Positions 7,464 through 35,965 of a stretch of DNA of 64,000 nt are shown here, one piece after another (the first letter of the stretch is position 1; the number at the start of each line of letters is the position of its first letter). Under the pieces are notes generated by a model that saw only the letters and a list, made by a program, of their open reading frames with translations, ran no database searches and was not told the DNA's origin. The position numbers and the translations under genes were made by a program. Source of the stretch: a virus (taxonomy: Duplodnaviria; Caudoviricetes); the IMG/VR virus record IMGVR_UViG_3300042892_000699; one strand, given 5' to 3'.

Positions 7464-8171
7464 ATGATGACAATAATTTTAATGACCCTACTAATGACAC
7501 ACTTGACTATAGTGTCAGTTACACTATATCTACATCGCAGTCAAAGTCATAGAGGTGTTGAATTTCATCCTGTATTAGCACACGCAATGCGTTTTTGGTT
7601 GTGGTTGACTACAGGTATGACTACCAAGCAATGGGTAGCAGTACATCGTAAGCATCATCAGAACACCGATGTCGAAGGTGATCCACACAGCCCACACGTA
7701 TACGGCATATGGAATTTAGTTTTTGGTGGCGTAAAGTATTACAATCGTGCAGGCAGTGATGCTGACATGGTTATGAAATACGGAATGGGTACTCCAAAAG
7801 ATTGGATTGAACGTAAACTTTATACACCCCATCACCGATTGGGTATTCTCGTAATGTTGGTTATAGACGTGTTGTTATTTGGTTGGTGGGGATTCTTAGT
7901 ATGGGGTGTACAGATGTTGTGGATACCTTTTTTTGCAGCAGGTGTAATAAACGGACTAGCACATTGGTGGGGATATCGCAATACTGACACTAAAGATAAG
8001 AGTAAAAATTTAATGCCATGGGGCATATGGATCGGCGGTGAGGAATTGCACAATAATCACCATGCAGATATCGCAAATCCTAAGTTTAGTCAGAAGTGGT
8101 GGGAATTTGACATAGGTTGGATGTACATTAAAGGGCTAGAGTTTTTGGGTTTAGCCAAGTTAAAAGGGTAA
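7464..8171 (+). CDS. Membrane fatty-acid (delta-9 type) desaturase, auxiliary metabolic gene
   Basis: Three His boxes (HRSQSH, HRKHH, HNNHH), DPHSP and WWEFDIGW motifs, hydrophobic segments. Confidence 0.9.
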   Translation: MMTIILMTLLMTHLTIVSVTLYLHRSQSHRGVEFHPVLAHAMRFWLWLTTGMTTKQWVAVHRKHHQNTDVEGDPHSPHVYGIWNLVFGGVKYYNRAGSDADMVMKYGMGTPKDWIERKLYTPHHRLGILVMLVIDVLLFGWWGFLVWGVQMLWIPFFAAGVINGLAHWWGYRNTDTKDKSKNLMPWGIWIGGEELHNNHHADIANPKFSQKWWEFDIGWMYIKGLEFLGLAKLKG

Positions 8172-16978: not shown

Positions 16979-17030
16979 GATCAGCCATAACTGATCACAA
17001 AGAAGGTTGCCGGCCATAAGCGGTAAGGAG
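16979..17030 (+). promoter_or_regulatory. Twin RNA hairpins in the DNA polymerase leader (candidate translational operator)
   Basis: GATCAG-CCATAA-CTGATC (16979-16996) and TTGCCG-GCCATAAG-CGGTAA (17007-17026); the second runs into the AAGGAG SD. Confidence 0.6.
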
Positions 17031-17036
17031 AACTAT

Positions 17037-19709
17037 ATGAGCTACGTCGATGCCATGTGGGATCGAGACAAGGACATTGTGCATGTCGTTGAGCGTGATC
17101 CGAAGAAAGGCAGAATCTTTCAGGAGTTTCCTGCAAGATACACATTTTATTACCCCGACCAAAGGGGCAAATACAAGTCAATATACGGTGAAAACCTAAG
17201 CAAAGTTGTTACTAGATCCTATAAGGATTTTCAGAAAGAACAACGGATTCACAGCAGTCACAAGCTATACGAATCTGATATCAATACAGTATTCAAAACT
17301 CTAGAAGAAAACTATCTCAATCACGAACCGCCTAAACTAAATGTGGCGTTCTTCGACATTGAGGTGGACTTCGATCCTGAAAGAGGCTACAGCACCCCCG
17401 AGGATGCTTTCATGCCTATTACATCGATCGCTGTTCACCTACAATGGTTAGATACACTGGTCTGCTTTGCTGTTCCCCCAAAGACACTGACAATGGAGCA
17501 GGCAACGGAACTGGTTAAGGACTTTCCTAATACACATCTGTTTGAAACTGAAGCAGAGATGTTAGATGCGTTCTTAGATCTGATTCAAGATGCTGACATT
17601 CTCAGTGGCTGGAACAGTGAAGGTTATGATATTCCATACACCGTTAACAGAGTTATTAAAGCACTGAGCAAAGAAGACACTCGTAGATTCTGTCTGTGGG
17701 GTCAATTTCCCAAGAAGAGAGAGTACGAAAAATATGGAAAAGCGGCTGTTACTTATGATCTGGTTGGTCGTGTTCATCTGGACAGTCTCGAGCTGTACCG
17801 CAAATACACATATGAAGAGCGACACACTTACCGACTGGATGCCATTGGAGAAATGGAAGTAGGCGAGAGCAAGACTCACTATGAAGGTACACTTGATCAG
17901 TTATACAACAATGACTTTCGTAAGTTCATTGAATACAACAGACAGGATACTGCACTGTTAGACAAGTTGGATAAGAAACTAAAGTTTATCGATCTTGCTA
18001 ACACACTGGCACACGAATGTACGGTGCTATTGCAGACCACAATGGGCGCGGTTGCTGTAACTGAACAGGCTATTGTAAACGAAGCTCACCACCGTGGACT
18101 TATTGTGCCTAATCGTGCCAAGCGCGATGAGGATGCAAACAATCAGGCAGCAGGTGCTTATGTTGCATATCCTAAAAAAGGTATCCACGACTGGATTGGA
18201 TCTATTGACATTAACTCATTGTATCCGTCAGCTATTCGTGCGCTCAACATGGGTCCAGAAACTATCATCGGTCAGTTACGTCAGGACAGGACAGATCAAC
18301 ATATCGATGAACAAATGATGGTTCATAAAAAATCATTTGCGGCGGCTTGGGAAGGTATGTTTGGTAGCCTAGAGTACGAAGCAGTTATGCGACAGGACCG
18401 TGCATTTGAAATCACAGTTGATTGGGAAAACGATCAAAGTGATATCATGAGTGCAGCCGAAGCATATAAATTAATCTTTGACAGTAATCAACCTTGGATG
18501 TTAAGCGCCAACGGCACTATCTTTACCTATGAACATGAAGGCATTATTCCCGGACTGTTAAAGCGTTGGTATGCTGAACGTAAAGACATGCAGAAGAAGC
18601 TCAAGGCAGCTATTGAAGCAGGTAACAAGATTGAAGAAGAATACTGGGACAAGCGACAGTTGGTCAAGAAGATTAACTTGAACAGTTTGTATGGTGCTAT
18701 TCTTAATGCAGGTTGCAGATTCTTCGACAAGCGTATTGGTCAGTCAACTACTCTAGTAGGTCGCCAGATTGCCAAGCACATGGCTGGTAAAGTCAATGAA
18801 ATGATTACCGGTGAGTTTGATCACGTAGGTAAGAGTATTATCTACGGTGATACTGACTCGTGCTACTTCTCAGCTTACAATACGCTAAAGACTGACATTA
18901 ACAAGAAGCTGATCCCTTGGGATAGAGATGTTGTTATTCAGTTGTATGATCAAATTGCCGAAGGCGTAAATGCAACATTCCCACAGTTCATGTTGGATGC
19001 ATTTCACTGCCCAAAGAGTCGAGGCGAAGTTATCAAAGGTGGTCGAGAAATTGTTGCGGTTAAAGGCCTGTTCATTACCAAGAAGCGTTATGCAGTATTG
19101 TATTACGATAAAGACGGTAAGAGACAGGACACAGACGGCAAGCCAGGTAAGATCAAAGCTATGGGCCTGGATCTCAAGCGTAGTGATACTCCGGAATTTA
19201 TGCAGAAGTTTCTAGAAGAAGTTCTGACCAAAGTACTAAATGGTGCAGAGGAACAAGAGATTTTGGAAATGATCAGTGCATTCCGAACTGAGTTTAAGGC
19301 CCGTCCAGGTTGGGAGAAGGGTAGTCCCAAACGAGCTAACAACATCACAGAGTATCAAGCCAAGGAAGCTAAACAAGGCAAGGCTAATATGCCAGGGCAT
19401 GTCCGTGCTGCTATTAACTGGAATACGCTAAAACGCATGAACGGTGACAAATACTCAATGGGCATTGTTGACGGCATGAAGGTCATTGTTTGTAAAGTTA
19501 AAGACAATCCATTGGGATACACATCCATTGCTTATCCGGTCGATGAGATGCGATTACCTAAATGGTTCCAAGACCTGCCATTCGATCACAGCGAAATGGA
19601 AACTGCTATCATTAACAACAAACTGGACAACCTCATCGGTGTGCTGGATTGGGATTTAGAATCAACTACCCAAGACAATACCTTTGGCAAATTATTTTCC
19701 TTTGATTGA
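17037..19709 (+). CDS. polB: Family B DNA polymerase (T4 gp43-like) with 3'-5' exonuclease
   Basis: FFDIEVD, GWNSEGYDIPY, YNRQD exonuclease motifs; DINSLYPS, KINLNSLYG, YGDTDS polymerase motifs. Start placed at ATG 17037 after AAGGAG. Confidence 0.95.
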   Translation: MSYVDAMWDRDKDIVHVVERDPKKGRIFQEFPARYTFYYPDQRGKYKSIYGENLSKVVTRSYKDFQKEQRIHSSHKLYESDINTVFKTLEENYLNHEPPKLNVAFFDIEVDFDPERGYSTPEDAFMPITSIAVHLQWLDTLVCFAVPPKTLTMEQATELVKDFPNTHLFETEAEMLDAFLDLIQDADILSGWNSEGYDIPYTVNRVIKALSKEDTRRFCLWGQFPKKREYEKYGKAAVTYDLVGRVHLDSLELYRKYTYEERHTYRLDAIGEMEVGESKTHYEGTLDQLYNNDFRKFIEYNRQDTALLDKLDKKLKFIDLANTLAHECTVLLQTTMGAVAVTEQAIVNEAHHRGLIVPNRAKRDEDANNQAAGAYVAYPKKGIHDWIGSIDINSLYPSAIRALNMGPETIIGQLRQDRTDQHIDEQMMVHKKSFAAAWEGMFGSLEYEAVMRQDRAFEITVDWENDQSDIMSAAEAYKLIFDSNQPWMLSANGTIFTYEHEGIIPGLLKRWYAERKDMQKKLKAAIEAGNKIEEEYWDKRQLVKKINLNSLYGAILNAGCRFFDKRIGQSTTLVGRQIAKHMAGKVNEMITGEFDHVGKSIIYGDTDSCYFSAYNTLKTDINKKLIPWDRDVVIQLYDQIAEGVNATFPQFMLDAFHCPKSRGEVIKGGREIVAVKGLFITKKRYAVLYYDKDGKRQDTDGKPGKIKAMGLDLKRSDTPEFMQKFLEEVLTKVLNGAEEQEILEMISAFRTEFKARPGWEKGSPKRANNITEYQAKEAKQGKANMPGHVRAAINWNTLKRMNGDKYSMGIVDGMKVIVCKVKDNPLGYTSIAYPVDEMRLPKWFQDLPFDHSEMETAIINNKLDNLIGVLDWDLESTTQDNTFGKLFSFD

Positions 19710-20499: not shown

Positions 20500-20867
20500 T
20501 AAAAGGAATAGCTCATTCAGGTCGATATCTCCAGGTACAAGGAGGTAGTCCAATGAATCCGTACATTTCTTCCGGTGGGCAATCTGCGGGAATGTTGCGC
20601 TATAATACAAATATCAATACCATAGAAGTATACGACGGGCAAGTTTGGAAAGAAGTATCTTCAAACTTTGCCAATGTAGCATTAACTAGTGAGGCAGAAG
20701 CATTACTTGACTGGGCACGAAAAAAGCGTGACGAAGAATTGCAGCTCGAAGTATTGGCTAAAGAACACCCTGCTATTAACATTGCCTTGGGTAATTTAAA
20801 GAAAGCCAAGATACAACTAGATGCTACAATAATATTAAGTAAAGAACATGACGAAACAACAAGTTAA
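20496..20867 (+). CDS. Hypothetical protein
   Basis: Clean ORF overlapping both neighbours. Confidence 0.5.
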   Translation: MIKGIAHSGRYLQVQGGSPMNPYISSGGQSAGMLRYNTNINTIEVYDGQVWKEVSSNFANVALTSEAEALLDWARKKRDEELQLEVLAKEHPAINIALGNLKKAKIQLDATIILSKEHDETTS

Positions 20868-22506
20868 CCTAACACCATTACAGAAAGACTATGCAGTCTA
20901 TTTGCCTGCAATTAGTAGTTTCTACAGTACCTATGTTGCTAAACAACGACTAGGTGAATTCGTACCAACAGATCGTATTCCTGCAGGTTTTGATCGTGGT
21001 ATCGAAGGTATGAACTTTTTAAATCCTGAACAAGGATACTTTACTTACAAATACGGTCTGTACTCTGCGGGTCATGCACAATTAGATCTTACTAAGAGTT
21101 TAGAACAAGAGTCCATGATTCAACAGCGTGATCGTAATAACACTATGATCTTAGGCGACTCAGGTGGATACCAGATTGGTAAGGGTGTTCTTAAGTTTGA
21201 CTGGTTAGACTTTGAAGGCAAGGAAGCTACTAAGACTCGTCAGAAGATTCTCGAGTGGCTCGAAGTCACAGCCGATTGGTCAATGATGCTAGACGTTCCA
21301 ACATGGGCATGTGATCACATTCACAGTCCTAAAACTGGACTAAAGACATTTGATGACTGCTTAGATAAGACTCGATACAATAACGATTACTTTTTGATGA
21401 ACAGAATGGGTCAAACTAAATGGCTCAACGTTCTGCAAGGTAGTGATTGGGACACTGCTGAAAAGTGGTATGCAGGTGTAAAAGAATTTAGCGACCCGGC
21501 AGGTAAGTATGCAGGGCGTGAAGCAGAAGGTTGGGCCTTTGGTGGTGCTAACATGTGCAAGATGGATATTACTCTCAAGCGTTTAATGACACTTAGAGAA
21601 GATGGTTTGCTGAAGGGCAAAAACTGGATCCACTTCTTGGGTACAGCGCAACTTGACTGGAGTTGCTACTTAACTTTAATTCAAAGACAAATCAGGAAAC
21701 ACATCAATGAAGAAATTACCATATCTTTTGACTGCGCCTCACCGTTCATTGCAACAGCGCACGGACTTGTCTACACAAACGCAGTCCACACGCCAAAAAG
21801 GTGGAGTGTTATTATGGACAAGGCACCAGATAACAAAGCACTATCAGGATCAGATATCCCGTTCCCTTTCGAATCGTCAATCGGTCGCAGACTAACAATG
21901 GCTGACATTGCCTACTACGATTTAGGCGTTCGTAAAACAGACGAAGAATTAGGTTTTGGTCCACGTGGTGGAAAAATTGAATTTAACCATTTAGAACCAG
22001 AACACTACCATGTTGTACCTAGACTTAACAAATTAGGTAAGATTCCAAATAGAACAAGTTGGGATAGCTTTGCCTATGCATTGATGATGGGACATAATGT
22101 CGAATGTCATATTGTTGCTGTTCAACGTGCTCAACAATTAATGGACATTGAGATTGCTAAATCTAAAGACAAGCTGACTTGGAAGCAATGGAAGAAAGTC
22201 AAGGGACAGGATATGAGCGATGAGTTTAGTGATTGGGTTCCCCGTAATATCTTATACTTCAACAGCTTTGTTGAAGACTTATTTAATACTGCTACTAAAG
22301 CAGATGCATTTGCAATGATCGAACAAGCTGGTCCATTCCTGCGTAGTTTAGAAGGTGCTCGACTACAAGGCGGTCCTGCTCAAAACAAGTTTAATAACTT
22401 GTTCGAAATTGAAGAAGTTACTAAGGTTGAAGAAATTGATCTTGCTAACCCAGATGACGACGAACTACGAAAACTTGAAGAAGGCACATTAGGAGATATA
22501 GAATGA
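20848..22506 (+). CDS. dpdA: tRNA-guanine transglycosylase-family protein, probably the DNA 7-deazaguanine insertase DpdA
   Basis: TGT motifs LGDSGGYQ, MMLDVP, VLQG, AFGG, IHFLG, SFDCASP; lies in a cluster with QueD-like and QueE genes. Confidence 0.75.
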   Translation: MTKQQVNLTPLQKDYAVYLPAISSFYSTYVAKQRLGEFVPTDRIPAGFDRGIEGMNFLNPEQGYFTYKYGLYSAGHAQLDLTKSLEQESMIQQRDRNNTMILGDSGGYQIGKGVLKFDWLDFEGKEATKTRQKILEWLEVTADWSMMLDVPTWACDHIHSPKTGLKTFDDCLDKTRYNNDYFLMNRMGQTKWLNVLQGSDWDTAEKWYAGVKEFSDPAGKYAGREAEGWAFGGANMCKMDITLKRLMTLREDGLLKGKNWIHFLGTAQLDWSCYLTLIQRQIRKHINEEITISFDCASPFIATAHGLVYTNAVHTPKRWSVIMDKAPDNKALSGSDIPFPFESSIGRRLTMADIAYYDLGVRKTDEELGFGPRGGKIEFNHLEPEHYHVVPRLNKLGKIPNRTSWDSFAYALMMGHNVECHIVAVQRAQQLMDIEIAKSKDKLTWKQWKKVKGQDMSDEFSDWVPRNILYFNSFVEDLFNTATKADAFAMIEQAGPFLRSLEGARLQGGPAQNKFNNLFEIEEVTKVEEIDLANPDDDELRKLEEGTLGDIE

Positions 22507-22706
22507 GACAAGAAATTATTAGCGTATTAAAACACCATTTTAAAGCACACATTTTCAAGCACAAAATGAATGTAGACATTATGTTGAGCAATCCCATGGC
22601 ACTACATGACCATACTGACTTAATGGATGCTATTGAAAAAGAAGTAGCATTGATTGCTGAATATCAAGACAAGTTGGACATAATGGAAAGTTATTTTAAG
22701 GAATAA
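22503..22706 (+). CDS. Hypothetical protein
   Basis: AGGAG SD, overlapping start/stop. Confidence 0.55.
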   Translation: MRQEIISVLKHHFKAHIFKHKMNVDIMLSNPMALHDHTDLMDAIEKEVALIAEYQDKLDIMESYFKE

Positions 22707-22707
22707 T

Positions 22708-22992
22708 ATGGCAACAGGTAAAAAGAAAACAGACATTATTATGTCTGCCGAAATATCAGAGTCTATGGAAATGCCCGGTACTATTGGCAGTGCTAGATTA
22801 ACATTTCCAAATGATCCCACTGTGGTAAAAGGCAGTCATTTAACTGTTACTACATTTCCAGACGGTAAAACTGTTTTAGAATGGGACGATGAGGCATTAC
22901 TCAGAGATGTCCAAAAAGCCTTGACAGAGTACGAGAATTCTGTTAAAGTTAATACTACTAAAACTAAACGTAAGAAGAAAAATGAAGCGTGA
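22708..22992 (+). CDS. Hypothetical protein
   Basis: AAGGA SD, clean ORF. Confidence 0.5.
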   Translation: MATGKKKTDIIMSAEISESMEMPGTIGSARLTFPNDPTVVKGSHLTVTTFPDGKTVLEWDDEALLRDVQKALTEYENSVKVNTTKTKRKKKNEA

Positions 22993-23494
22993 TTACGATA
23001 CAGGTATTAGTGAAGATGTAATTTTCTTTACTGGTACTGAAGTTGAGCACACTCCTGCATACGGCATGAAAACATTGTTTGTTACAGGAGTTCAATCTAG
23101 CGAGCATATTGCACTAAACTTGCAAGGTTGCGAGCATATTTTCTTTGGCGCAAATCATAGTTATAATCCACAAACTTACGAAGAACACAAAGTCTGGGAA
23201 GAAATGATTATGTTCTTCCTTGATAAAGAATACCTGTGTTCATTGGATATTCCAATTCACCAAGTAGAAGAATTCCACGAAGGCGGGCTTTGCGAGCGTG
23301 ATAATTTTATTCCACAAATTCGTGTACCTATTCCTTACATTCGTCTTTGGAACTATAACACTATGTTAAAGATTGACGACAAAGATTTTAAGGCAACTAA
23401 TCCCGGTGTATGGTCCCACAGTCTACACACACTAATGGATCGTAGTAAGTTTACAGACTGGGCACAATATAAAAACGACAAGGTAATAAAATGA
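22982..23494 (+). CDS. Hypothetical protein in the deazaguanine cluster
   Basis: 170-aa enzyme-like alpha/beta pattern (FFTGTEVEHT...HIFFGANHSY...KIDD). Confidence 0.55.
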   Translation: MKRDYDTGISEDVIFFTGTEVEHTPAYGMKTLFVTGVQSSEHIALNLQGCEHIFFGANHSYNPQTYEEHKVWEEMIMFFLDKEYLCSLDIPIHQVEEFHEGGLCERDNFIPQIRVPIPYIRLWNYNTMLKIDDKDFKATNPGVWSHSLHTLMDRSKFTDWAQYKNDKVIK

Positions 23495-23664
23495 TTAACT
23501 CTAAAGTTACAAAACAAGCAAATCAACAAAGTTCAGAAGAAAAATTATTTAAATTGCTCGAAAGCATTGACTGGAAGTTATGGGAAATCTATAATATGAT
23601 GAAAGATAATCTTCCTGAAAAATCGGCACCCGCTAAAAAAACCACAAAGGTTAAAGCACAGTAA
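23491..23664 (+). CDS. Small hypothetical protein (57 aa, not in the ORF track)
   Basis: ATG 23491 overlaps the upstream stop; MINSKVTKQ...KVKAQ ends in TAATG overlapping the next start. Confidence 0.55.
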   Translation: MINSKVTKQANQQSSEEKLFKLLESIDWKLWEIYNMMKDNLPEKSAPAKKTTKVKAQ

Positions 23665-24065
23665 TGAATCAAGAACTTAATATGATTTGGGTCACCTTTC
23701 GTAAGGAGGGTGTTCATATGTATCCGGCTGCGGCTACAGACCCCAAACTTGCCACAGGCAACATGTACGATGTTAGTTTCCTCGGTACTCCGCACCGTCA
23801 CATTTTCCATTTTAAAATCTATATTCAAGTATTTCACGATGATCGTGATATTGAGTTTATTCAGTTTAAGCGTTGGTTAGAGCACTGCTATGCAGATGGT
23901 ACACTCGAACTTAACCACAAATCCTGTGAAATGATAAGCCGTGATCTTCATGGAACCATTTCGGCAAGATATCCAGGTCGTGAGATCTGGATTGACGTAA
24001 GTGAAGACGGCGAGAATGGCTGCTTCATTAAATTTCCTCAACCCTTTAATACTACACAAAGGTAA
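23664..24065 (+). CDS. QueD/PTPS-like T-fold protein with DpdL-type motif
   Basis: LGTPHRHIF (LxxxHRHxF) in place of the QueD C...HGH motif; RDIEF and SCE motifs. Confidence 0.7.
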   Translation: MNQELNMIWVTFRKEGVHMYPAAATDPKLATGNMYDVSFLGTPHRHIFHFKIYIQVFHDDRDIEFIQFKRWLEHCYADGTLELNHKSCEMISRDLHGTISARYPGREIWIDVSEDGENGCFIKFPQPFNTTQR

Positions 24066-24071
24066 AACATT

Positions 24072-24314
24072 ATGGCACAACCTGCCTACATTCAGAAAAC
24101 TCTTCGTATGAAACCCGAAGTTGAAAAGATCTTTGATGATCTCGATGCTTGGTTAGATCATTGCAGATTTAACCTCCTTCCTTATAACCCTTCAGACTTG
24201 TATAGGTCACAGGAATACAGGTATTTTTCTCGTCCTCCTTATCAGGGCGATCGTAAAAACTACCGCAAGGATTATAAGCCTAGAGGCCAAAACAATGACA
24301 ATTTTTCTCGTTGA
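24072..24314 (+). CDS. Hypothetical protein
   Basis: Clean ORF with SD-like AAGG. Confidence 0.5.
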   Translation: MAQPAYIQKTLRMKPEVEKIFDDLDAWLDHCRFNLLPYNPSDLYRSQEYRYFSRPPYQGDRKNYRKDYKPRGQNNDNFSR

Positions 24315-25368
24315 TTTAGAATCTGTCGAGACAAGGTATACGGGTCAATGGAAGACTCATGTACCTGATCTACTTAAAAAGGCAGGACACAATGTTCAAA
24401 TTATCTCTGGTCCCACAGATATTCCTAGTGCTACTACCCCTGGGGCTTTTCTTAATTTTGGCGGCACAAACATCTACAAAGCTCGGCAGGTTGAGCAGAT
24501 GGGTCGGCTATTTTGCGACGGAGCCGTTCATGCAGGTGATCATTTTATATTTACTGATGCTTGGCACCCTGGTATCATCAATCTCAAGTATATGAGTGAG
24601 TTGCTGGGTATTCCAGTAACAACACATGGACTATGGCACGCCGGTAGTTATGACCCTCAAGACTTCCTAGGTCGTCTTGTTGGCAACAGGCCCTGGGTTA
24701 GACACGCCGAAAAGAGTTTCTTCCACGCATTTGATCACAACTATTTTGCAACAAAATTTCATATTGAAATGTTTATGGAAAATTTGTTAGGTATTGATTT
24801 CCGAACAGGTTCTATGCGTTATATGCAGGACAAGCAAATTGTTCGTACAGGGTGGCCCATGGAATATATGGCTGATACCTTAGAGAACTATAACACCAGT
24901 TCCAAGCATGATCTTATCTTGTTCCCACATCGTATTGCTCCAGAGAAACAGGTTGAAATTTTCCGTGACTTGGCTACACACTTACCACAATATGAATTTA
25001 TTGTGTGTCAAGATACGCAGTTGGACAAGCATGAATATCACAAGTTGCTAGGTCGTGCTAAGATTATTTTCAGTGCAAATTTGCAAGAGACACTGGGTAT
25101 TAGTTGCTACGAAGGTGCATTAGTAGATGCTATACCTATGGTGCCGGATAGATTAAGTTATAGTGAAATGTATTATGAAGGATTCAAATATCCTAGTGAG
25201 TGGACTAAGGACTGGAACAGTTACCTAGCACATAGACAAGAATTATGTCATCACATTATTGTTACTATGTCTCATTATGACAAGCGGGTGCCGCAGGTTC
25301 GCAAGCAGGCAGCTGATTTAACAGAACTATTCTTTAGTGCAAATAAATTACTGGAGATGATCAAATGA
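24295..25368 (+). CDS. GT-B (GT4-like) glycosyltransferase
   Basis: HRIAPEKQ and E-x7-E motif ETLGISCYE. Confidence 0.75.
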   Translation: MTIFLVDLESVETRYTGQWKTHVPDLLKKAGHNVQIISGPTDIPSATTPGAFLNFGGTNIYKARQVEQMGRLFCDGAVHAGDHFIFTDAWHPGIINLKYMSELLGIPVTTHGLWHAGSYDPQDFLGRLVGNRPWVRHAEKSFFHAFDHNYFATKFHIEMFMENLLGIDFRTGSMRYMQDKQIVRTGWPMEYMADTLENYNTSSKHDLILFPHRIAPEKQVEIFRDLATHLPQYEFIVCQDTQLDKHEYHKLLGRAKIIFSANLQETLGISCYEGALVDAIPMVPDRLSYSEMYYEGFKYPSEWTKDWNSYLAHRQELCHHIIVTMSHYDKRVPQVRKQAADLTELFFSANKLLEMIK

Positions 25369-25823
25369 AATGGTTTCTAAACTTTTTAGAACGTGTTGGT
25401 CGCAAAAGAATTGTAATGGATAGACAAAATAATGAACCTTACCTCGAACGCTACTACATTTTTCTTAAAGACAGAAAGCATTTCCCCTTTAATGTGTTCA
25501 TTCACAAGTTTCTTAAGTCAGACCCCGATGATGTACATGATCATCCATGGTCTTACGCTACACTTATCTTAAAAGGCGGTTATTATGAATGGACTCCTAA
25601 CTTTGATTCACAAGGTGCCAAGATCAGTGAAACACGGCATTGGCGTGGTCCTGGGCACTGCCGTATTTGCCCTGCTAATAGCTATCACCGTGTTGAGCTT
25701 AAAGAAGGAACAGACTGTTGGACAATGTTCATGCCTGGTCCACAAAAACGAGAATGGGGTTTTCTTGTAAAGAATAAGTGGATCCATAATACAGAATATC
25801 TAGAAGAAAAGGCAGTAAAATGA
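25365..25823 (+). CDS. Cupin-fold protein
   Basis: HKF...HDHPW...ILKGGYYE...YHRVEL...WTMF metal-binding cupin pattern. Confidence 0.65.
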   Translation: MKWFLNFLERVGRKRIVMDRQNNEPYLERYYIFLKDRKHFPFNVFIHKFLKSDPDDVHDHPWSYATLILKGGYYEWTPNFDSQGAKISETRHWRGPGHCRICPANSYHRVELKEGTDCWTMFMPGPQKREWGFLVKNKWIHNTEYLEEKAVK

Positions 25824-25996
25824 AAATTGGAAGTGTCTGGCAATCGGCTGATAGAACAACATTTATTATCAAAAATATAGAAATTATCAACGAGCAAACT
25901 TGGATCTTTTATGTAAACTCAAAGACACAACAAAAATACTCATGCCTAAAAGATGCATTTACTAGCAGATTCCAAGAACAACTCAATAACGGATAA
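25820..25996 (+). CDS. Small hypothetical protein (58 aa, not in the ORF track)
   Basis: ATG overlaps the upstream TGA; MKIGSVWQSAD...QEQLNNG; fills the gap exactly. Confidence 0.55.
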   Translation: MKIGSVWQSADRTTFIIKNIEIINEQTWIFYVNSKTQQKYSCLKDAFTSRFQEQLNNG

Positions 25997-26001
25997 TATA
26001 A

Positions 26002-26277
26002 ATGAACAGTCAAACTAAAGAAGTGATGGACATTCTACAAGAAGAATGTGCTGAAGTAATTCAAGCAGTAAGTAAGATTAGTCGATTCGGTATTGACAAC
26101 TTCAAGCCAGGTAAGTCCAAAACTAATCGAGAACACCTTGAAGAAGAATTAGGCGATATGTTAGCAATGATCGATATTATGTTGGAAAAGAATGTAATAT
26201 CGTTAGAGCACTTAGAAGTTGCAAAAGCTGCTAAGATTGAAAAATTAAAACAATGGTCTAATATTTTTAATACTTAA
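26002..26277 (+). CDS. MazG-like nucleotide pyrophosphohydrolase
   Basis: QEECAEVIQAVSK...LEEELGDMLAM (EExxE...ExGD). Confidence 0.75.
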   Translation: MNSQTKEVMDILQEECAEVIQAVSKISRFGIDNFKPGKSKTNREHLEEELGDMLAMIDIMLEKNVISLEHLEVAKAAKIEKLKQWSNIFNT

Positions 26278-27125
26278 AATTTTGTTATAAGTTGATCTGC
26301 GGACGAAATGCAGGCTTGCATTTTACAAATTTGAGGAGTAGATGGTAGTTCTAAACTACCATCAAATATATTTCCCAAAGGCGAATTATTACAATCGCTT
26401 CCTCGGACCCAACCTTCTCCACTTATATTAATTCTTTCTATACCTGTATTACATAGTTTGCCTGTAAAGACAGGATTAGACTGCACACTCTCTGCAGATC
26501 TTTCTTCAAAAGTTTTGTTAACACTGACATGATTGTTTAAAACCCATTCTTCCCCAAACAAATATATCAACTGGTCTTTGGTATAGTTTAATCTTCCTAG
26601 ATAGTTGCTAGCCTGTACATATAATAATTCTTTTCCAACTTTAATTCCTAGTGAAGATTCGAGCTCATCTATGCGGTTAAGATCTTCATCAAAAAAATCA
26701 GGTCGAATAGGAACACCTAAATGAAATGGTTTATATTTTTTTTGAAATGCTTTTACAATAAATTTAATAAGATTTAAATTTTGCCAAGAGTGGCATGTAA
26801 GATTTAAAAAATCTACATGAGGTTCTATAGCCCACCAATCCATCCAAAGTTTTCCTCCGGCAGTATGTAGTGTAGTATTTCCGCCATTTTCTTTACATAG
26901 TTTTAACAGTGCAGGGAAATCAAAAAATTCCAACGGATCGCCACCATTAAATATCCAGTCAATATGTCTTCCTAATTTTTTATCATAATGGTCTATAAAT
27001 GTGTTTGCTACTGCTAGATATTCATCTACGTGTCTAGGTTTGTCACCTCCCCAAAATGTTTTTGGACAATATTCGCAGCCGCCTGTGCAATAATTATGTA
27101 TCTGCCAGATTACTACTGTTTTCAT
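26274..27125 (-). CDS. Radical SAM protein with Cys-rich (SPASM/Twitch-like) C-terminus
   Basis: CTGGCEYC (CxxxCxxC), FNGGDP, C-terminal C...C...CKMQAC. Confidence 0.8.
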   Translation of the reverse strand: MKTVVIWQIHNYCTGGCEYCPKTFWGGDKPRHVDEYLAVANTFIDHYDKKLGRHIDWIFNGGDPLEFFDFPALLKLCKENGGNTTLHTAGGKLWMDWWAIEPHVDFLNLTCHSWQNLNLIKFIVKAFQKKYKPFHLGVPIRPDFFDEDLNRIDELESSLGIKVGKELLYVQASNYLGRLNYTKDQLIYLFGEEWVLNNHVSVNKTFEERSAESVQSNPVFTGKLCNTGIERINISGEGWVRGSDCNNSPLGNIFDGSLELPSTPQICKMQACISSADQLITKF

Positions 27126-27143
27126 TTATTTTTACCTTTATAG

Positions 27144-27171
27144 TTGACACGCCTAAATAATAATGTATAAT
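27144..27171 (+). promoter_or_regulatory. sigma70-type promoter for queE
   Basis: TTGACA-N16-TATAAT. Confidence 0.7.
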
Positions 27172-27201
27172 TACTTATCACCTCTCTTAAAGGTCTATTA
27201 A

Positions 27202-28050
27202 ATGAGCAAAATTAAAGTATCCGAACTATTCTATTCAATCCAAGGAGAAGGGCGTTATATGGGCGTCCCTTCTGTATTCTTACGTACATATGGCTGCAAC
27301 TTTACCTGTCAAGGTTTTGGTATGCCACGCGGTGAACTGAGCGCAGAAGCAGATAAAATTGCAGAACGTGCTGTTGAATTTGCAGAATACAAATCACTTC
27401 CGCTAGTTAGCACAGGCTGCGACAGTTATGCAAGTTGGCATCCTGCATTTAAAGACCTAAGCCCGATGATCGAAACTGAAGGTCTTGCTAAGGCTGTAGT
27501 TGATACATTGCCGTTTAAAGAATGGCGTGACGAACATCTTGTTATCACGGGTGGTGAGCCGTTGTTGGGGTGGCAAAAGGCCTATCCAGATTTGCTGAAT
27601 CAACCTTGCATGAAAGGTCTTAAAGAAATTACTTTTGAAACTAACGGTACAATGCGTTTAACTGAAAAGTTTAAAGAATATCTAACAGACTGGACATTCG
27701 GCGGAGATGATAGAGAGATTACATTTAGCGTAAGTGCTAAACTGCCGGCAAGCGGCGAGCCCTGGAAAGATGCTATTAAACCCAAAGTTGTTTGCGACTA
27801 TGAGAATTATGGAACAGCATATTTGAAGTTTGTTGTAGAAACAGAACAAGATATCGAAGATGCACTAAGGGCTACAGAAGAATTCCGCGCTGAAGGATTT
27901 ACTGGCCATGTATATTTGATGCCGGTAGGTGGAGTAGAGAGTGTTTACGCATTAAATAATAAAACAGTAGCAATAGCCGCTATGAAAAACGGACTCCGTT
28001 ATAGCGATAGATTGCAAGTTCCATTGTTTAAGAACGAATGGGGTACTTGA
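27202..28050 (+). CDS. queE: 7-carboxy-7-deazaguanine synthase QueE
   Basis: VSELFYSIQGEG...PSVFLRTYGCNFTC...CDS...VITGGEP...FETNG...SAKL...RLQ. Confidence 0.9.
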   Translation: MSKIKVSELFYSIQGEGRYMGVPSVFLRTYGCNFTCQGFGMPRGELSAEADKIAERAVEFAEYKSLPLVSTGCDSYASWHPAFKDLSPMIETEGLAKAVVDTLPFKEWRDEHLVITGGEPLLGWQKAYPDLLNQPCMKGLKEITFETNGTMRLTEKFKEYLTDWTFGGDDREITFSVSAKLPASGEPWKDAIKPKVVCDYENYGTAYLKFVVETEQDIEDALRATEEFRAEGFTGHVYLMPVGGVESVYALNNKTVAIAAMKNGLRYSDRLQVPLFKNEWGT

Positions 28051-31012: not shown

Positions 31013-32095
31013 ATGTCAAAAGAAATTTCCGCAAATCGCACAGTTGGTCCAAACGAAGCTAAGGCAGCTATCCGTAAATGCTTGAAAAAGCAACGTCCGG
31101 TTTTTATGTGGGGTCCCCCCGGTATTGGTAAATCCGATATTGTTAAACAACTAGGCGATGAGTCAGATCGCGAAGTCATCGACGTTCGTTTGAGTTTATG
31201 GGAACCTACTGACATTAAAGGTATTCCGTATTACAATTCTACTTCCAATACAATGACTTGGGCACCTCCTGCAGAACTGCCTACAGATCCAGAGTCTACT
31301 GCTATTCTGTTTTTGGATGAATTGAACTCTGCGGCTCCTGCTACACAGGCAGCGGCTTTCCAGTTAGTATTGAATCGTCGTGTTGGTACTTATCAATTGC
31401 CAAAAGGTGTTAGCATTGTTGCCGCAGGTAACCGTGAAACTGACAAGGGTGTTACTTATCGTATGCCTGCTCCGTTGGCTAACCGTTTCCTGCATTTGGA
31501 ACTCCGTACAGATTTTGAAGACTGGCATCAGTGGGCAGTTAACAATAGAATTCACGAACAGGTTGTCGGTTATATTGGTTTTGCCAAGCAGGACTTGTAT
31601 GACTTTGATCCAAAGTCTAGCTCACGCTCATTTGCTACTCCTCGCTCGTGGTCATTTGTATCCGAATTGTTGGAGGAAGATGATGTTCCAGAAAACACAT
31701 TAACTGATTTGATTGCAGGTGCTATCGGTGAGGGCCTTGCTGTTAAATTTATGGCACACCGCAAGGTTGCTAAACAGATGCCGAAACCAGAAGATATCTT
31801 AGCAGGTAAGATTAAGAAATCGGATATCAAAGAAATCTCTGCTATGTATTCGTTGACTATTAGCCTGTGCTACGAGCTCCAAGAAGCTGATAAAAAGAAA
31901 GCTAAGAACTGGGATGAAATGGCAGACAACTTCTTTGGATTCATGATGGATAACTTCCCAACTGAATTAGTTGTTATGGGTGCAAAGGTTGCGTTGACTA
32001 ACTATCAACTGCCGTTTGATGCTAGCAAATTGAAGAACTTTGACAAGTTCCACGATAAGTACGGCAAGTACATTATCCAGGCAATGGAAGGTTAA
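31013..32095 (+). CDS. MoxR-family AAA+ ATPase
   Basis: Walker A GPPGIGKS, Walker B ILFLDELN, AAGNR sensor, PLANRF arginine finger, ATPRSW. Confidence 0.9.
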   Translation: MSKEISANRTVGPNEAKAAIRKCLKKQRPVFMWGPPGIGKSDIVKQLGDESDREVIDVRLSLWEPTDIKGIPYYNSTSNTMTWAPPAELPTDPESTAILFLDELNSAAPATQAAAFQLVLNRRVGTYQLPKGVSIVAAGNRETDKGVTYRMPAPLANRFLHLELRTDFEDWHQWAVNNRIHEQVVGYIGFAKQDLYDFDPKSSSRSFATPRSWSFVSELLEEDDVPENTLTDLIAGAIGEGLAVKFMAHRKVAKQMPKPEDILAGKIKKSDIKEISAMYSLTISLCYELQEADKKKAKNWDEMADNFFGFMMDNFPTELVVMGAKVALTNYQLPFDASKLKNFDKFHDKYGKYIIQAMEG

Positions 32096-32099
32096 AATT

Positions 32100-32118
32100 G
32101 GCCCTTAGGGGCCTTTTT
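32100..32118 (+). terminator. Rho-independent terminator
   Basis: GGCCC-TTAG-GGGCC followed by TTTTT, just after the ATPase stop. Confidence 0.75.
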
Positions 32119-32120
32119 AC

Positions 32121-32149
32121 TTGCTCTTTTGATAAATTGAATGTATAAT
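32121..32149 (+). promoter_or_regulatory. sigma70-type promoter for the VWA/metallopeptidase gene
   Basis: TTGCTC-N17-TATAAT, then AGGAG SD. Confidence 0.65.
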
Positions 32150-32175
32150 AGTACTATCGCAACTAGGAGTAATAA

Positions 32176-33444
32176 ATGTCCGCAGTAATGAAACAAGAAA
32201 AACAAAAGAAACAAGATTGGTTAGGTAAAACTTTTAGCGAAAGTGAAAAAGCTAAAATTCTCGATAAACTAATTACCGCACGAGTTGGGCTCTTGCTCCG
32301 CCATCCGTTTTTTGGTAATCTTGCTACCCGAATGAAAATGGTAGAGGCTAGCGACTGGTGTCAAACCCTTGCAACAGATGGTCGCAATTTTTATTTTAAT
32401 TTAGGATTTGTAAATAAACTTACTCCTAAGGAAGCAGAGTTTGGCTTTGCACACGAGGTCCTCCATAATGTATTTGATCATATGGGTCGGCGAGACGGGC
32501 GCGACCCTCAACTGTCAAACATTGCCGCAGACTATGCCGCTAACCAAATTCTTAAAGACGAACGTATCGGTACAGTTCCTAGCTTTATTAAGATTTTCCA
32601 GGACGACAAATATCGCGGATGGAGTTACGAGCAGATTTATCAGGACCTTTACGACAAGGCTGAAAAGATTGATATTTCCCAATTAGGGGAATTGCTCGAC
32701 GAACACCTAGATGGTGAGGGTGAAGATGGGGAAGGTGAAGGCAAAGATGGAGAAGAAATTGACGGAAGTAGTAAGGGCCGGCCACGTTTGACTGCAGAAG
32801 AAAAGAAACAAATCCGTGATGAGATCAAAGAAGCTATGGTAGCGGCTGCTCAATCAGCAGGTGCAGGTAAAGTGCCTGCAGGTATTGCTAGAATGATCAA
32901 AGACTTTACTGAGCCAAAGATGGACTGGCGACAACTGTTGCGCATGAATATCCAAAGTATTCTTAAAAGCAATTTTAGCTTTGCTCGCCCTAACCGCAAG
33001 AGTCAACAATGTGGCGCTATCTTGCCAGGTATGATGAATGAAGAAACTATTGACGTATCTGTAGCAATCGATATGTCTGGTAGTATTTCAGATGCTATGG
33101 CTAAAGATTTCTTGTCAGAAGTCAAAGGTATTATGGATGAGTACAAGGACTTTAAATTAGATTTGTGGTGTTTTGATACTAACGTATACGGTTACAAACA
33201 ATTTACCGGAGATACTGCTGATGATATTAACGAGTACGATTGCCAAGGTGGCGGTGGTACTGATTTTGATGCAAACTGGGAATTCATGAAGTACAATGAT
33301 ATTCAACCCAAGAAGTTTATTATGTTTACTGACGGTTATCCCTGCGGTAGCTGGGGAGATGAAGATTATTGTGATACTATCTTTATTATTCACGGTAACG
33401 ATGCCATAATTTCTCCATTCGGCCAGACCGCGCATTATAAATAA
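32176..33444 (+). CDS. DUF2201-type metallopeptidase plus VWA domain protein (MoxR partner)
   Basis: TLATDG...AHEVLH (HExxH), acidic linker, VAIDMSGSI MIDAS, GGGGTDF, MFTDG. Confidence 0.85.
   Translation: MSAVMKQEKQKKQDWLGKTFSESEKAKILDKLITARVGLLLRHPFFGNLATRMKMVEASDWCQTLATDGRNFYFNLGFVNKLTPKEAEFGFAHEVLHNVFDHMGRRDGRDPQLSNIAADYAANQILKDERIGTVPSFIKIFQDDKYRGWSYEQIYQDLYDKAEKIDISQLGELLDEHLDGEGEDGEGEGKDGEEIDGSSKGRPRLTAEEKKQIRDEIKEAMVAAAQSAGAGKVPAGIARMIKDFTEPKMDWRQLLRMNIQSILKSNFSFARPNRKSQQCGAILPGMMNEETIDVSVAIDMSGSISDAMAKDFLSEVKGIMDEYKDFKLDLWCFDTNVYGYKQFTGDTADDINEYDCQGGGGTDFDANWEFMKYNDIQPKKFIMFTDGYPCGSWGDEDYCDTIFIIHGNDAIISPFGQTAHYK
33436..33443 (+). promoter_or_regulatory. T4-type late promoter TATAAATA
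   Basis: Perfect TATAAATA 13 nt upstream of ATG 33457. TAAATA cores also at 2218, 7457, 8169, 13200, 30233 (+) and 40665, 60848, 61318 (-). Confidence 0.6.
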
Positions 33445-34002: not shown

Positions 34003-34608
34003 ATGAAACATGTGGGAAAAATGAAAAATAATGCTGCTCGAGTAGCAGTAGTTTATAGGACTGTTCCGGGAGAGCCCAACAACGCATTAGTAGTTGGGAC
34101 TAGTGGCTTGCCAGATGCTAATCACGATGCTTTGATGAGCGTTATTCAAAGTGAATCCGGTCAACAAGCAAACGAGTTAGCTGACATCTTAGCAACACGC
34201 CGATTCCCAGACGGTGATGTAATGCTAAGTTGGTTACACGCCCGTGGACAACTTAAAAAAGTTCCCACTAATCTCGTGTTAATGACTCCCAATACTCAAA
34301 CACAAATTCCATTGAATGAACTCAATGAAATGATTGCAACTCAGAAAGGAATCACTGTTGAGGATTTGGCTGTTAGTGATGGTCAGAAAAAATCTACCGT
34401 TACTAAAAAAGAAGCCAAGGAAGAAATTATTGTCGATGATATTATTGTCGACACTGCTCCTACAATTGCAGAAGCACCAGTTACTGCATCTGACTTGCGG
34501 TCAATGGCAGACAAACTTTCTAAGCAGGCAGCAGAGATGCGCCGCAAAGCAGACGAAATGTCTCCGCCAGTTAAGAAGACGGCTAAGGCAACAAAAGCCG
34601 AAGCTTAA
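34003..34608 (+). CDS. Hypothetical protein
   Basis: AAGGAG SD; low-complexity charged C-terminus. Confidence 0.55.
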   Translation: MKHVGKMKNNAARVAVVYRTVPGEPNNALVVGTSGLPDANHDALMSVIQSESGQQANELADILATRRFPDGDVMLSWLHARGQLKKVPTNLVLMTPNTQTQIPLNELNEMIATQKGITVEDLAVSDGQKKSTVTKKEAKEEIIVDDIIVDTAPTIAEAPVTASDLRSMADKLSKQAAEMRRKADEMSPPVKKTAKATKAEA

Positions 34609-35084
34609 TGATTAACTGTTTAGTTGCAGTTGAACGAAACCAGGGCATAGGATTTAATGGTCAAATGCCCTGGCCTCACCTTAGGGGTGATATGCAGTGG
34701 TTTAAACAAATGACAACTAATCAAGTTGTTATTATGGGTTCAACCACATATGATAGTTTGGGTAAATCTTTACCTAATAGAATTAATGTAGTGATAAGCA
34801 GAAAGAGAGTGCTAGGTGATCACACCTTTGACGACTGCGGTGCTGCCTTAGATTTTTGTTCTGTAGAATACCCTGATAAGGAAATTTTCATTATCGGCGG
34901 AAGTGCCGTTTATGAACAATATCTCGATATTATTGACAGATTTTATATTACCGAAATAGATGCAGACTATGAGTGTGATAAGTTTTTTGACCTTACCTAT
35001 GTAAAAGAACACTTTACAAAGGTTAAAGAACACGCTATACTTAATGACCCGATAAAATATACAATAAAAGAATACAACTTATGA
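34608..35084 (+). CDS. folA: Dihydrofolate reductase
   Basis: GIGFNGQMPW, DMQWFK, VIMG, LPNRINVVISR, IIGGS, YITEID. Confidence 0.93.
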   Translation: MINCLVAVERNQGIGFNGQMPWPHLRGDMQWFKQMTTNQVVIMGSTTYDSLGKSLPNRINVVISRKRVLGDHTFDDCGAALDFCSVEYPDKEIFIIGGSAVYEQYLDIIDRFYITEIDADYECDKFFDLTYVKEHFTKVKEHAILNDPIKYTIKEYNL

Positions 35085-35965
35085 CACATCCAGAACAAGC
35101 ATATCTCAATGCACTTAAAGACATTTTAGCAACAGGTGAACAGCGACCCGATAGAACTGGAGTCGGGACTATTAGTAAGTTCGGTGTACAATTGCGATTT
35201 GATCTGCAGAAAGGATTTCCTGCTGTTACTACTAAGAAGCTAGCATGGCGTGCCTGTGTTAGCGAACTGCTTTGGTTTATTGAAGGCAGTGGTGATGAGA
35301 ATCGCTTAAAGGAAATCCTACACGGTGAGCGTTATACCGATAAGAAAACTATATGGTCAGATAATGCCACAGCACCTTACTGGACAAACAAACGACTCCA
35401 GCGGCATGCAGGTGATCTCGGTCGTGTCTACGGCGTGCAATGGCGAAAGTGGCGTGCTCCGTTAGTTCGTATTAACAAAGTTGTCCTACAAAATTGCGAC
35501 CAGTTGCTTAATTTAATTGACGGCTTAAAGAAAGACCCTTACGGTCGTAGACATATCATTACTGCATGGAATCCAGGCGAACTAGAACTAATGGCATTAC
35601 CTCCGTGCCATATGATGAGTCAATTCTACGTAAGCAACGGGAAACTAAGTTGTTCAATGTATCAACGTAGTGCAGACATGTTCCTCGGAGTACCGTTTAA
35701 CATTGCCAGCTATGCACTGTTCACACATATGATTGCACAAGCCTGTGAATTAGAAGTCGGCGAACTTATTATTACCCTAGGTGACGCTCATATCTACACC
35801 AATCATGTTGATCAGGTTAACGAGCAATTAGCACGTAAGCCATTACCGTTGCCAGAGTTAAAACTAAACCCTGCTGTCAAAAACATCACAGGGTTTACAA
35901 TGGACGATATTGAATTGGTAAATTATACTAGTCACGATGCTATTAAAGCACCAATGGCTGTTTAA
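35081..35965 (+). CDS. thyA: Thymidylate synthase
   Basis: DRTGVGT, FPAVTTKK, GRVYGVQWR, MALPPCH, YQRSADMFLGVPFNIASY, DAHIY. Confidence 0.96.
   Translation: MTHPEQAYLNALKDILATGEQRPDRTGVGTISKFGVQLRFDLQKGFPAVTTKKLAWRACVSELLWFIEGSGDENRLKEILHGERYTDKKTIWSDNATAPYWTNKRLQRHAGDLGRVYGVQWRKWRAPLVRINKVVLQNCDQLLNLIDGLKKDPYGRRHIITAWNPGELELMALPPCHMMSQFYVSNGKLSCSMYQRSADMFLGVPFNIASYALFTHMIAQACELEVGELIITLGDAHIYTNHVDQVNEQLARKPLPLPELKLNPAVKNITGFTMDDIELVNYTSHDAIKAPMAV

Follow-up and report, generated by a model that had tools for sequence, protein, structure and literature searches.

A glycosyltransferase gene conserved within the DpdL/DpdA-type 7-deazaguanine cluster of an uncultured giant phage

We analyzed a gene cluster in a 64-kb stretch of viral DNA (IMG/VR record IMGVR_UViG_3300042892_000699), which is referred to below as the window. 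At positions 20848-28050, this phage carries genes for a 7-deazaguanine DNA modification pathway together with a gene for a glycosyltransferase (GT), and the module can be described as a deazaguanine system of the DpdL/DpdA kind with a conserved sugar transferase as an additional member. The GT adjoins DpdL or DpdA across independent phage and bacterial lineages, and this gene neighborhood is strong evidence that it acts in the deazaguanine pathway. We consider it somewhat probable that, through this module, a 7-deazaguanine derivative, most likely one that bears a sugar, takes the place of G in the DNA of the phage itself.

In what follows, loci used for comparison are labeled with L-numbers (L001, L045, L103 and so on). 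The phage database searched consisted of 50,697 deposited phage records, gene content within the clade was counted in 80 related IMG/VR loci, and the 552-aa DpdA-like protein of the window is called DpdA552. A preliminary description of the window had proposed a 7-deazaguanine DNA modification cluster formed by a co-oriented run of six genes (those for the DpdA-like, QueD-like, GT, cupin, MazG-like and QueE proteins). The DpdL signature, the tRNA-guanine transglycosylase (TGT) fold of DpdA552 and the QueE match described below support such a cluster and place it in the QueC-free, DpdL-containing type. All six genes were found within the span given above and share the plus strand, but the run is not wholly co-oriented because a minus-strand radical SAM gene interrupts it (Table 1). 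The arrangement is not a matter of chance, since the order polB, clamp, DpdA, orf170, DpdL, orf80, GT, cupin, QueE and exonuclease recurs across the 80 IMG/VR loci.

Fold and genomic neighbors of the glycosyltransferase

The AlphaFold2 (AF2) model of the window GT had a predicted local distance difference test score (pLDDT) of 96.4 and a predicted template-modeling score (pTM) of 0.92, and on the basis of this model we confidently predict a GT-B, GT4-like glycosyltransferase of the retaining type. Whole-length structure comparison (VIA) gave Z scores of 20-26 to sucrose-phosphate synthase (SPS), BshA, glycogen synthase, PglA, PimB' and others, and the Foldseek probability was 1.0. The best matches were retaining enzymes of the GT4 and GT5 families, i.e., SPS (Z 26.2) and BshA (Z 23.6), and also glycogen synthase, PglA and LmbT. 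Sequence searches yielded no Pfam match (Glycos_transf_1 and Glyco_transf_4) at E values up to 10 and no match in NCBIfam or PADLOC, and a phmmer search against the PDB returned nothing useful; L152, a distant relative of the GT, has a weak match to PF13439. The family is broad, with 1131 clusters at 50% identity (E up to 1e-3).

In an alignment of 56 homologs (27-54% identity), the E-x7-E motif of the GT (E265-TLGISCY-E273) contains an invariant E273 and an E265 conserved in at least 90% of sequences, and the cleft residues R14, K62, H115, D120, R213 and K218 are invariant or nearly so. This conservation suggests a working enzyme. It bears on the idea that the GT-fold protein has no catalytic role and assists DpdA, for example as a DNA- or base-handling subunit, in the way DpdB assists bacterial DpdA. 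In favor of this idea, GT-associated DpdA proteins are longer (400-552 aa) than the 259-aa DpdA3 of Cellulophaga phage phiST, which has no GT; however, preservation of both the motif and the cleft makes a purely accessory role very improbable.

A full-length GT homolog was present in 17 records of the phage database, and all 17 also contained DpdL. The genes are arranged as DpdA, GT and DpdL in Pseudomonas phage PA5oct, as DpdL overlapping GT and followed by FolE and QueE in Phosso, and as DpdA3, GT, DpdL and QueE in ACP17, whereas in Xanthomonas phage X1 and Burkholderia phage BCSR5 the GT is found with a TGT-like gene, with DpdL and QueE alongside. Among these GT-bearing lineages the type of DpdA varies, whereas the GT and DpdL are constant. 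The association extends to divergent GTs (36% identity or less): DpdL is located directly upstream in four of seven informative cases, often with overlapping stop and start codons, and two of the remaining three, which have no upstream DpdL, form a separate DUF4494-linked group near polymerases and other GTs. In a tree of 36 sampled GTs, DpdA and/or DpdL adjoins 33.

The divergent branch just mentioned (26-31% identity) was observed on two metagenomic phage contigs (L101 8001-9083 and L148 8001-9053), where the GT always follows a DUF4494 gene beside a DNA polymerase. A PD-(D/E)XK nuclease is located nearby, L101 encodes four further glycosyltransferases, and deazaguanine genes are missing from the surroundings. 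This branch may represent another DNA glycosylation system. The GTs of PhiXhv, Ep026 and Ep032 were rejected as family members; they are partial matches located beside GlmS and a BshB-like deacetylase, which is a different GT4 context.

A scan of bacterial and archaeal genomes, carried out with a narrower GT alignment, yielded 40 loci, including phage contigs binned into metagenome-assembled genomes. Isolates in which the GT adjoins a homolog of DpdA552 belong to Magnetospirillum, Aurantimonas, Pelagibacterium, Devosia, Ochrobactrum, Azospirillum, Shimia and Sulfitobacter. At 16 alphaproteobacterial chromosomal loci (L111, L113-L118, L124, L129, L130 and L132-L137) the set is reduced to a triad in which the GT is accompanied by a DpdA-like protein and a small membrane protein. 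Of the membrane proteins, 14 were tested, and each one matches Pfam Vut_1/YhhQ (PF02592, best E 2e-7), a family associated in the literature with preQ0 uptake. No DpdL, QueE, FolE or T-fold gene is located near these triads, which are possibly DNA modification islands fed by salvage. In Pelagibacterium mangrovi, the triad is preceded by a serine resolvase and two genes without assigned function. Magnetospirillum aberrantis SpK has a different run (L123 6324-12053), in which a 519-aa CoiA-nuclease-like protein, the GT, DpdL, a DpdA-like protein and a PTPS protein are encoded downstream of genes for a HEPN_LA2681 protein and for a two-component system. No PADLOC model matched this run, which may reflect a restriction-modification-like use of the same chemistry.

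Such loci resemble the bacterial Dpd system (DpdA/DpdB/DpdC, with the deazaguanine nucleosides dPreQ0 and dADG in DNA), in which, according to the literature, a TGT-family DpdA inserts 7-deazaguanine and the genes are located in genomic islands. The neighbors of the bacterial GT loci include a nuclease-like gene, a HEPN gene or a resolvase. In contrast to the Dpd system, neither DpdB, DpdC nor a PADLOC Dpd match was found here, and the conserved partner is a glycosyltransferase.

The bacterial triads are also informative with regard to a role outside DNA. The most common neighbor of the GT is a PTPS/QueD paralog, FolE often follows directly, and the cyanobacterial pteridine glycosyltransferase BGluT (5zer) is among the structural matches (Z 20.7), all of which would fit an enzyme that glycosylates a pterin supplied by FolE and the T-fold protein. 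However, BGluT is no closer to the GT than about 20 other GT4 enzymes, and QueE and a DNA transglycosylase accompany the GT in every phage lineage examined. Since the 16 bacterial loci pair the GT with a DpdA-like protein and a transporter but have neither FolE nor a T-fold gene nearby, we regard the pteridine glycoside as a highly unlikely product.

The predicted transglycosylase and the probable route to the deazaguanine base

The AF2 model of DpdA552 (pLDDT 79, pTM 0.80) was compared with known structures by Foldseek, and all of the top 50 PDB matches were the TGT of Zymomonas mobilis (probability 1.0, E ~1e-7), with target-normalized TM scores of 0.46-0.53. Three aspartates are invariant in 25 homologs: D104 (in GDSGGYQ), D149 (in MLDVP) and D295 (in SFDCASP). 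Presumably, they are the counterparts of D102, D156 and the nucleophile D280 of the Z. mobilis enzyme. DpdA552 is 43% identical to gp168 of PA5oct. At the level of single-sequence searches it had no Pfam match (PF01702 included) even at E values up to 10 and no match in PHROG, NCBIfam (TGT models included) or PADLOC, and phmmer against the PDB returned nothing useful.

We compared DpdA552 with three phage proteins, the DpdA3 of ACP17, the DpdA3 of phiST and the TGT-like protein of X1; DpdA1, DpdA2, DpdA4 and bacterial DpdA were covered only through the PADLOC scan. There was no detectable similarity to ACP17 gp123 (DpdA3; BLASTP E 0.44), and hhalign probabilities of the DpdA552 profile were 8% with phiST DpdA3 and 0.8% with the X1 protein, i.e., no significant relation. 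Thus, DpdA552 is predicted from its modeled structure to be a TGT-fold, DpdA-type protein of an unclassified subfamily, set apart from the three phage proteins compared. A complex prediction for DpdA552 and the GT scored 0.13 (mark 0.32), which counts neither for nor against binding.

For the QueD-like protein, the preliminary description had named LxxxHRHxF as the mark of DpdL, and this agrees with the published signature, which stands in for the CxxxHGH of QueD (PMC10516641). The window protein contains such a motif (Table 1), in which L40, H44, H46 and F48 are invariant in 20 homologs and R45 is conserved in at least 90%. Residues invariant across 20 homologs including the founding member, phiST CGPG_00067, are H18, H44, H46, F48, H58, E64, SCE (87-89) and E114. 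The window protein is 31-68% identical to DpdL of phiST, ACP17, PA5oct and Phosso; tblastn recovered CGPG_00067 at 31% identity over 88% of the query (E 2e-5 in the whole phage database and 6.6e-10 in a small database). When the DpdL profile was aligned with six QueD sequences by hhalign, only the C-terminal 42 columns were matched (probability 62%, E 8e-5). No Pfam PTPS match was found, single-sequence scans of Pfam, NCBIfam and PADLOC returned no match, and hmmsearch of the PDB, run with the DpdL profile, returned neither a PTPS nor a QueD structure. For phiST DpdL, a T-fold/PTPS relationship was reported with 99.9% HHpred probability (PMC10516641). By analogy with phiST, the window protein is a predicted 7-carboxy-7-deazaguanine (CDG) decarboxylase.

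The QueE-like protein matches a PHROG annotated as 'QueE-like radical SAM' over its full length (Table 1). Five NCBIfam QueE models were hit at E values of 1e-10 to 1e-13, all far below the curated cut-offs, and the Pfam Radical_SAM score was 26.4 bits with a cut-off of 29.5; identity to QueE of PA5oct, X1 and ACP17 is 28-31%. The MazG-like protein scores 29.2 bits against PF03819, above the cut-off of 22, and matches phrog_4856 (E 8e-23). Its gene is present in 26 of the 80 related loci.

FolE, canonical QueD and QueC had been noted as missing from the window. We agree with this observation, as tblastn with phage and relative queries detected no homolog of FolE, QueD or the X1 QueC-like protein in the 64 kb, and no FolE, QueD or QueC family turned up among the other large open reading frames (ORFs) scanned. 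In the records of relatives, FolE was found in nine of ten, QueD in two of five fragments and QueC in none of five. FolE is located between the GT and the cupin in many relatives, whereas in L045, which has the same arrangement as the window, it is ~62 kb upstream of the GT. The same spacing would therefore put FolE of this phage outside the window.

As judged from sequence comparison, the gene content of the cluster matches the QueC-free DpdL pathway, which is the route of phiST to 2'-deoxy-7-deazaguanosine (dDG) (PMC10516641). Both phages have QueE, a DpdL with LxxxHRHxF, a TGT-superfamily transglycosylase and a MazG-like protein encoded in one cluster, the MazG-like gene of phiST adjoining dpdL. 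In the records of relatives of the window phage, FolE and QueD were found but QueC was not, which corresponds to the gene content of phiST. On the other hand, phiST has no GT, cupin or orf170, its short DpdA3 is not detectably similar to DpdA552, and its DpdL is only ~31-33% identical to that of the window. In Rhizobium phage RHph_I1_18 (L096 6402-7226), which has DpdL but no GT, a macro-domain gene ('Appr-1-p processing') directly follows dpdL, hinting at a further variant of the pathway.

The cupin, clade-specific genes and genomic setting

In the preliminary description, the cupin was a hydroxylase that prepares the acceptor for the GT: it would hydroxylate the inserted deazaguanine, and the GT would then make an O-glycoside, as in base J or glucosylated 5-hydroxymethylcytosine (glucosyl-hmC). 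The stop codon of the GT gene overlaps the start codon of the cupin gene (25365-25368), and the cupin is kept in 72 of the 80 close loci, the records of the other eight ending within ~3.8 kb after the GT. Arabinosyl-5-hydroxycytosine provides a precedent for a base that is hydroxylated and then directly glycosylated (PMC13326640).

The type of cupin does not fit this scheme. The PHROG that it matches (Table 1) is annotated 'cysteine dioxygenase', it had no match in Pfam, NCBIfam or PADLOC, and its histidines H47, H58, H60 and H108, which are conserved to at least 95% among 54 sequences, form a set typical of 3-His cupins. We take the 152-aa protein to be of the thiol-dioxygenase type and not a 2-oxoglutarate hydroxylase. 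Its homologs occur in 103 phage records, mostly of Mycobacterium, Gordonia, Burkholderia and Xylella phages; no DpdL or DpdA552 record was among the cupin matches listed, the cupin-bearing phages themselves not having been searched for DpdA. Moreover, searches of the entire records of PA5oct, Phosso, ACP17, X1 and RHph_I1_18 yielded no cupin match. Nor was it found in L103, whose GT is 75% identical and which has an uninterrupted series of DpdA, orf170, DpdL, orf80, GT, FolE and QueE, or in L108-L110, where the rest of the module is intact. Consequently, an acceptor for the GT must exist in the absence of the cupin, and we consider hydroxylation by the cupin as a preparatory step improbable. 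Of the two genes that had been tied to dpdA, the GT indeed travels with DpdL/DpdA across phages, but no such link was found for the cupin in these searches. The cupin is probably an optional passenger, and it is possible that it carries out an extra step specific to this clade.

Like the cupin, orf80 and the minus-strand radical SAM gene do not belong to the core of the module and are additions of this clade. No homolog of orf80 was found in the other lineages compared, nor was there a Pfam, NCBIfam or PADLOC match. The radical SAM protein has a Pfam Radical_SAM match under the cut-off (E 3.6e-4) and a Cys-rich C-terminus that resembles the STM4011 family (partial match, E 1.7e-6). It was found at the same place, between MazG and QueE, in only nine of the 80 related loci and looks like an accessory insert. 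The orf170 protein had no family match in Pfam, NCBIfam or PADLOC and no usable match in a protein atlas; its sole homolog outside the clade is gp122 of ACP17, directly upstream of ACP17 DpdA3 (hidden Markov model E 5e-23).

Table 1. Positions of the genes of the deazaguanine cluster and of the polymerase gene in the window
Gene or product	Position	Strand	Remarks
Family-B DNA polymerase (polB)	17007-19709		Single gene in window
DpdA-like (TGT fold), 552 aa	20848-22506	+	GDSGGYQ motif; predicted structure
orf170, conserved protein of module	22982-23494	+	Kept in 71/80 related loci
DpdL-like QueD paralog, 133 aa	23664-24065	+	LGTPHRHIF; phrog_17812, E 1e-32
orf80, small basic protein, isoelectric point (pI) 9.3	24072-24314	+	Between DpdL and GT; in 78/80 related loci
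GT-B (GT4-like) glycosyltransferase, 357 aa	24295-25368	+	Predicted structure; E-x7-E motif
Small 3-His cupin, 152 aa	25365-25823	+	HDHPW motif; phrog_4786, E 2e-40
MazG-like NTP pyrophosphohydrolase	26002-26277	+	PF03819
Radical SAM protein, 283 aa	26274-27125	-	CxxxCxxC at residues 13-20
QueE-like CDG synthase	27202-28050	+	phrog_2076, E 2e-52

The window is part of the genome of a large myovirus, with genes for baseplate wedge and hub, tail fibers and an endolysin, as well as an exonuclease gene. A megablast search for a record nearly identical to the cluster found none in the phage database. A protein identical to the GT is encoded on 53 metagenomic contigs, of which the longest spans 376 kb, and IMG/VR contains at least 594 related loci. 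Thus, the window phage is a member of an abundant uncultured clade of giant phages.

Its closest cultured relative over the cluster region is PA5oct (Wroclawvirus; gp168-gp166-gp162), which shares the order polB, clamp-like, DpdA-like (43% identity), GT (43%), DpdL (50%), QueE and exonuclease. PA5oct differs in that no cupin, orf170 or MazG homolog was found in the region, and its gp166-168 are annotated as hypothetical. The polymerase is encoded in PA5oct by two genes parted by a homing-endonuclease gene (L001 2605-7831), whereas the window has one.

Several other genes of the window were observed in passing. A single ORF of 4732 aa is located on the minus strand (43081-57279) amid baseplate and tail genes. 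On the plus strand, a 1461-aa protein (8549-12934) matches a cytidyltransferase-annotated PHROG over residues 684-912 (E 4e-9), and a protein of the fatty-acid-desaturase family (PF00487, E 1e-11; 7464-8171), unusual in phage, is encoded amid tail-fiber genes. At 31013-33444 on the plus strand, the gene of an AAA ATPase (AAA_3/AAA_5) precedes that of a metallopeptidase-like protein (DUF2201) containing a VWA-like domain, and the two resemble a MoxR-type pair.

Proposed chemistry and its implications

We infer each chemical step proposed here from the folds, motifs, gene content and conserved neighborhoods described above. FolE and QueD, encoded outside the window, together with QueE would convert GTP to CDG, and since no QueC was found in the window or in the relatives searched, preQ0 would not be made. 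By analogy with phiST, DpdL would decarboxylate CDG to 7-deazaguanine, and the TGT-fold DpdA552 would exchange G in DNA for the deazaguanine base. The GT4-like GT would move a sugar from a nucleoside diphosphate sugar of the host onto the deazaguanine; the cluster holds no sugar-nucleotide genes. The MazG-like protein might trim the competing nucleotide pool.

Glycosylation could take place at either of two points. The GT may use the free base that has yet to be inserted, as does HuiG in the formation of huimycin, or the base already present in DNA, as do the T4 glucosyltransferases with 5-hydroxymethylcytosine (hmC). HuiG of Kutzneria albida glycosylates a free 7-deazapurine with N-acetylglucosamine at its 2-amino group (PMC7439116). 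It resembles our GT in gene context and chemistry, being encoded beside FolE, QueD and QueE and placing a sugar onto a 7-deazaguanine-derived base; it differs in that the product is a secondary metabolite, the acceptor is O6-methyl-preQ0 and there is no DNA-insertion enzyme. Its precedent indicates that glycosylation of a 7-deazaguanine-derived base is feasible. Precedents for glycosylation within DNA are the T4 glucosyltransferases and the arabinosyl-5-hydroxycytosine system. T4 alpha-glucosyltransferase and the arabinosyl-5-hydroxycytosine GT of HY126 are, like the window GT, phage-encoded GT-B proteins that place sugars onto modified bases, but they act on pyrimidines bearing a hydroxyl and have no sequence similarity to it. 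Both orders are conceivable; an action on the free base first would be favored by the tight coupling of DpdL and GT, the likeness to small-molecule GT4 enzymes, the acidic pI of the GT (6.3) and the huimycin precedent.

With regard to the acceptor, 7-deazaguanine has no hydroxyl, and a sugar might be attached at N2, C7 or C8, or at the carboxylate of CDG. A hydroxymethyl-pyrimidine was considered as an alternative acceptor. It is unlikely, because the window contains, at 34608-35965 on the plus strand, a dihydrofolate reductase gene (DHFR; PF00186, E 2e-40) and, immediately after it, a full-length gene for a canonical ThyA (PF00303, 351 bits).

The need for such an acceptor atom is one of several points that weigh against a sugar-bearing product. 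Among solved structures, those nearest to the GT are of generic GT4 enzymes with small-molecule substrates (BshA, MshA, GlgM and SPS), and dozens of structures match it at least as well as do the DNA-modifying T4 alpha-glucosyltransferase (Z 18.3) and HY126 GT (Z 19.4). Three sampled members of the GT family (L101, L148 and L145) are located outside any deazaguanine context. FolE and QueD were seen in relatives and not in this phage itself, and the decarboxylase activity of DpdL is a prediction (PMC10516641). In addition, phiST, RHph_I1_18 and Ahp1 are DpdL phages without a GT, and phiST makes plain dDG with FolE, QueD, QueE, DpdL, DpdA3 and MazG; thus, the GT is not needed for insertion as such.

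These observations would be compatible with a plain phiST-type system, in which dDG, or the corresponding CDG nucleoside (dCDG), is formed and the GT serves another acceptor, such as a protein, an envelope precursor of the host or a small metabolite, being kept nearby for regulatory or historical reasons. However, the GT adjoins DpdL or DpdA across phage families and also across bacteria, with DpdA of different types, and unless these genes share a function such an association is difficult to account for. Its frequent overlap with the DpdL stop codon and the reduction of the bacterial triad to DpdA, a YhhQ-like transporter and the GT also speak against an unrelated acceptor. We therefore regard the plain system as rather unlikely and prefer a deazaguanine that carries a sugar.

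Two published observations fit the proposed glycosylation mechanism. DNA of PA5oct is resistant to restriction enzymes whose recognition sites contain G, and the presence of a modified G is suspected (PMC12191111). Expression of dpdL and dpdA of ACP17 in E. coli yielded no dDG, and the authors suggested that further enzymes may be required (PMC10516641); in ACP17, the GT gene is located between the dpdA and dpdL used in that experiment.

Our literature search found no paper tying a glycosyltransferase to deazaguanine in DNA. To our knowledge, the sugar-modified DNA bases described are all pyrimidines, i.e., glucosyl-hmC, arabinosyl-hmC, arabinosyl-5-hydroxycytosine, base J and glycosylated derivatives of 5-hydroxymethyluracil, and the deazaguanines known in DNA carry only small groups at position 7. 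We tentatively suggest, with somewhat less than even expectation, that the DNA of the window phage, of the cultured phages PA5oct, ACP17, Phosso and X1, and of thousands of uncultured relatives contains a glycosylated 7-deazaguanine, formed with a GT4-like enzyme, DpdL and a new DpdA subfamily, which would be the first sugar-bearing purine in any DNA, and that the same DpdA-GT pair, supplied by a YhhQ-type importer, marks some alphaproteobacterial chromosomes with an epigenetic label of self and non-self.

If this is true, the known DNA bases would gain a new class, that of glycosylated deazapurines. The finding would suggest why dpdA and dpdL of ACP17 gave no product in E. coli, and also the nature of the suspected modified G in PA5oct, a therapy candidate. 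Such a base would also bear on the evasion of restriction, CRISPR and END-nuclease defenses, on nanopore and other sequencing artifacts in very abundant uncultured giant phages, and on enzymatic DNA labeling.

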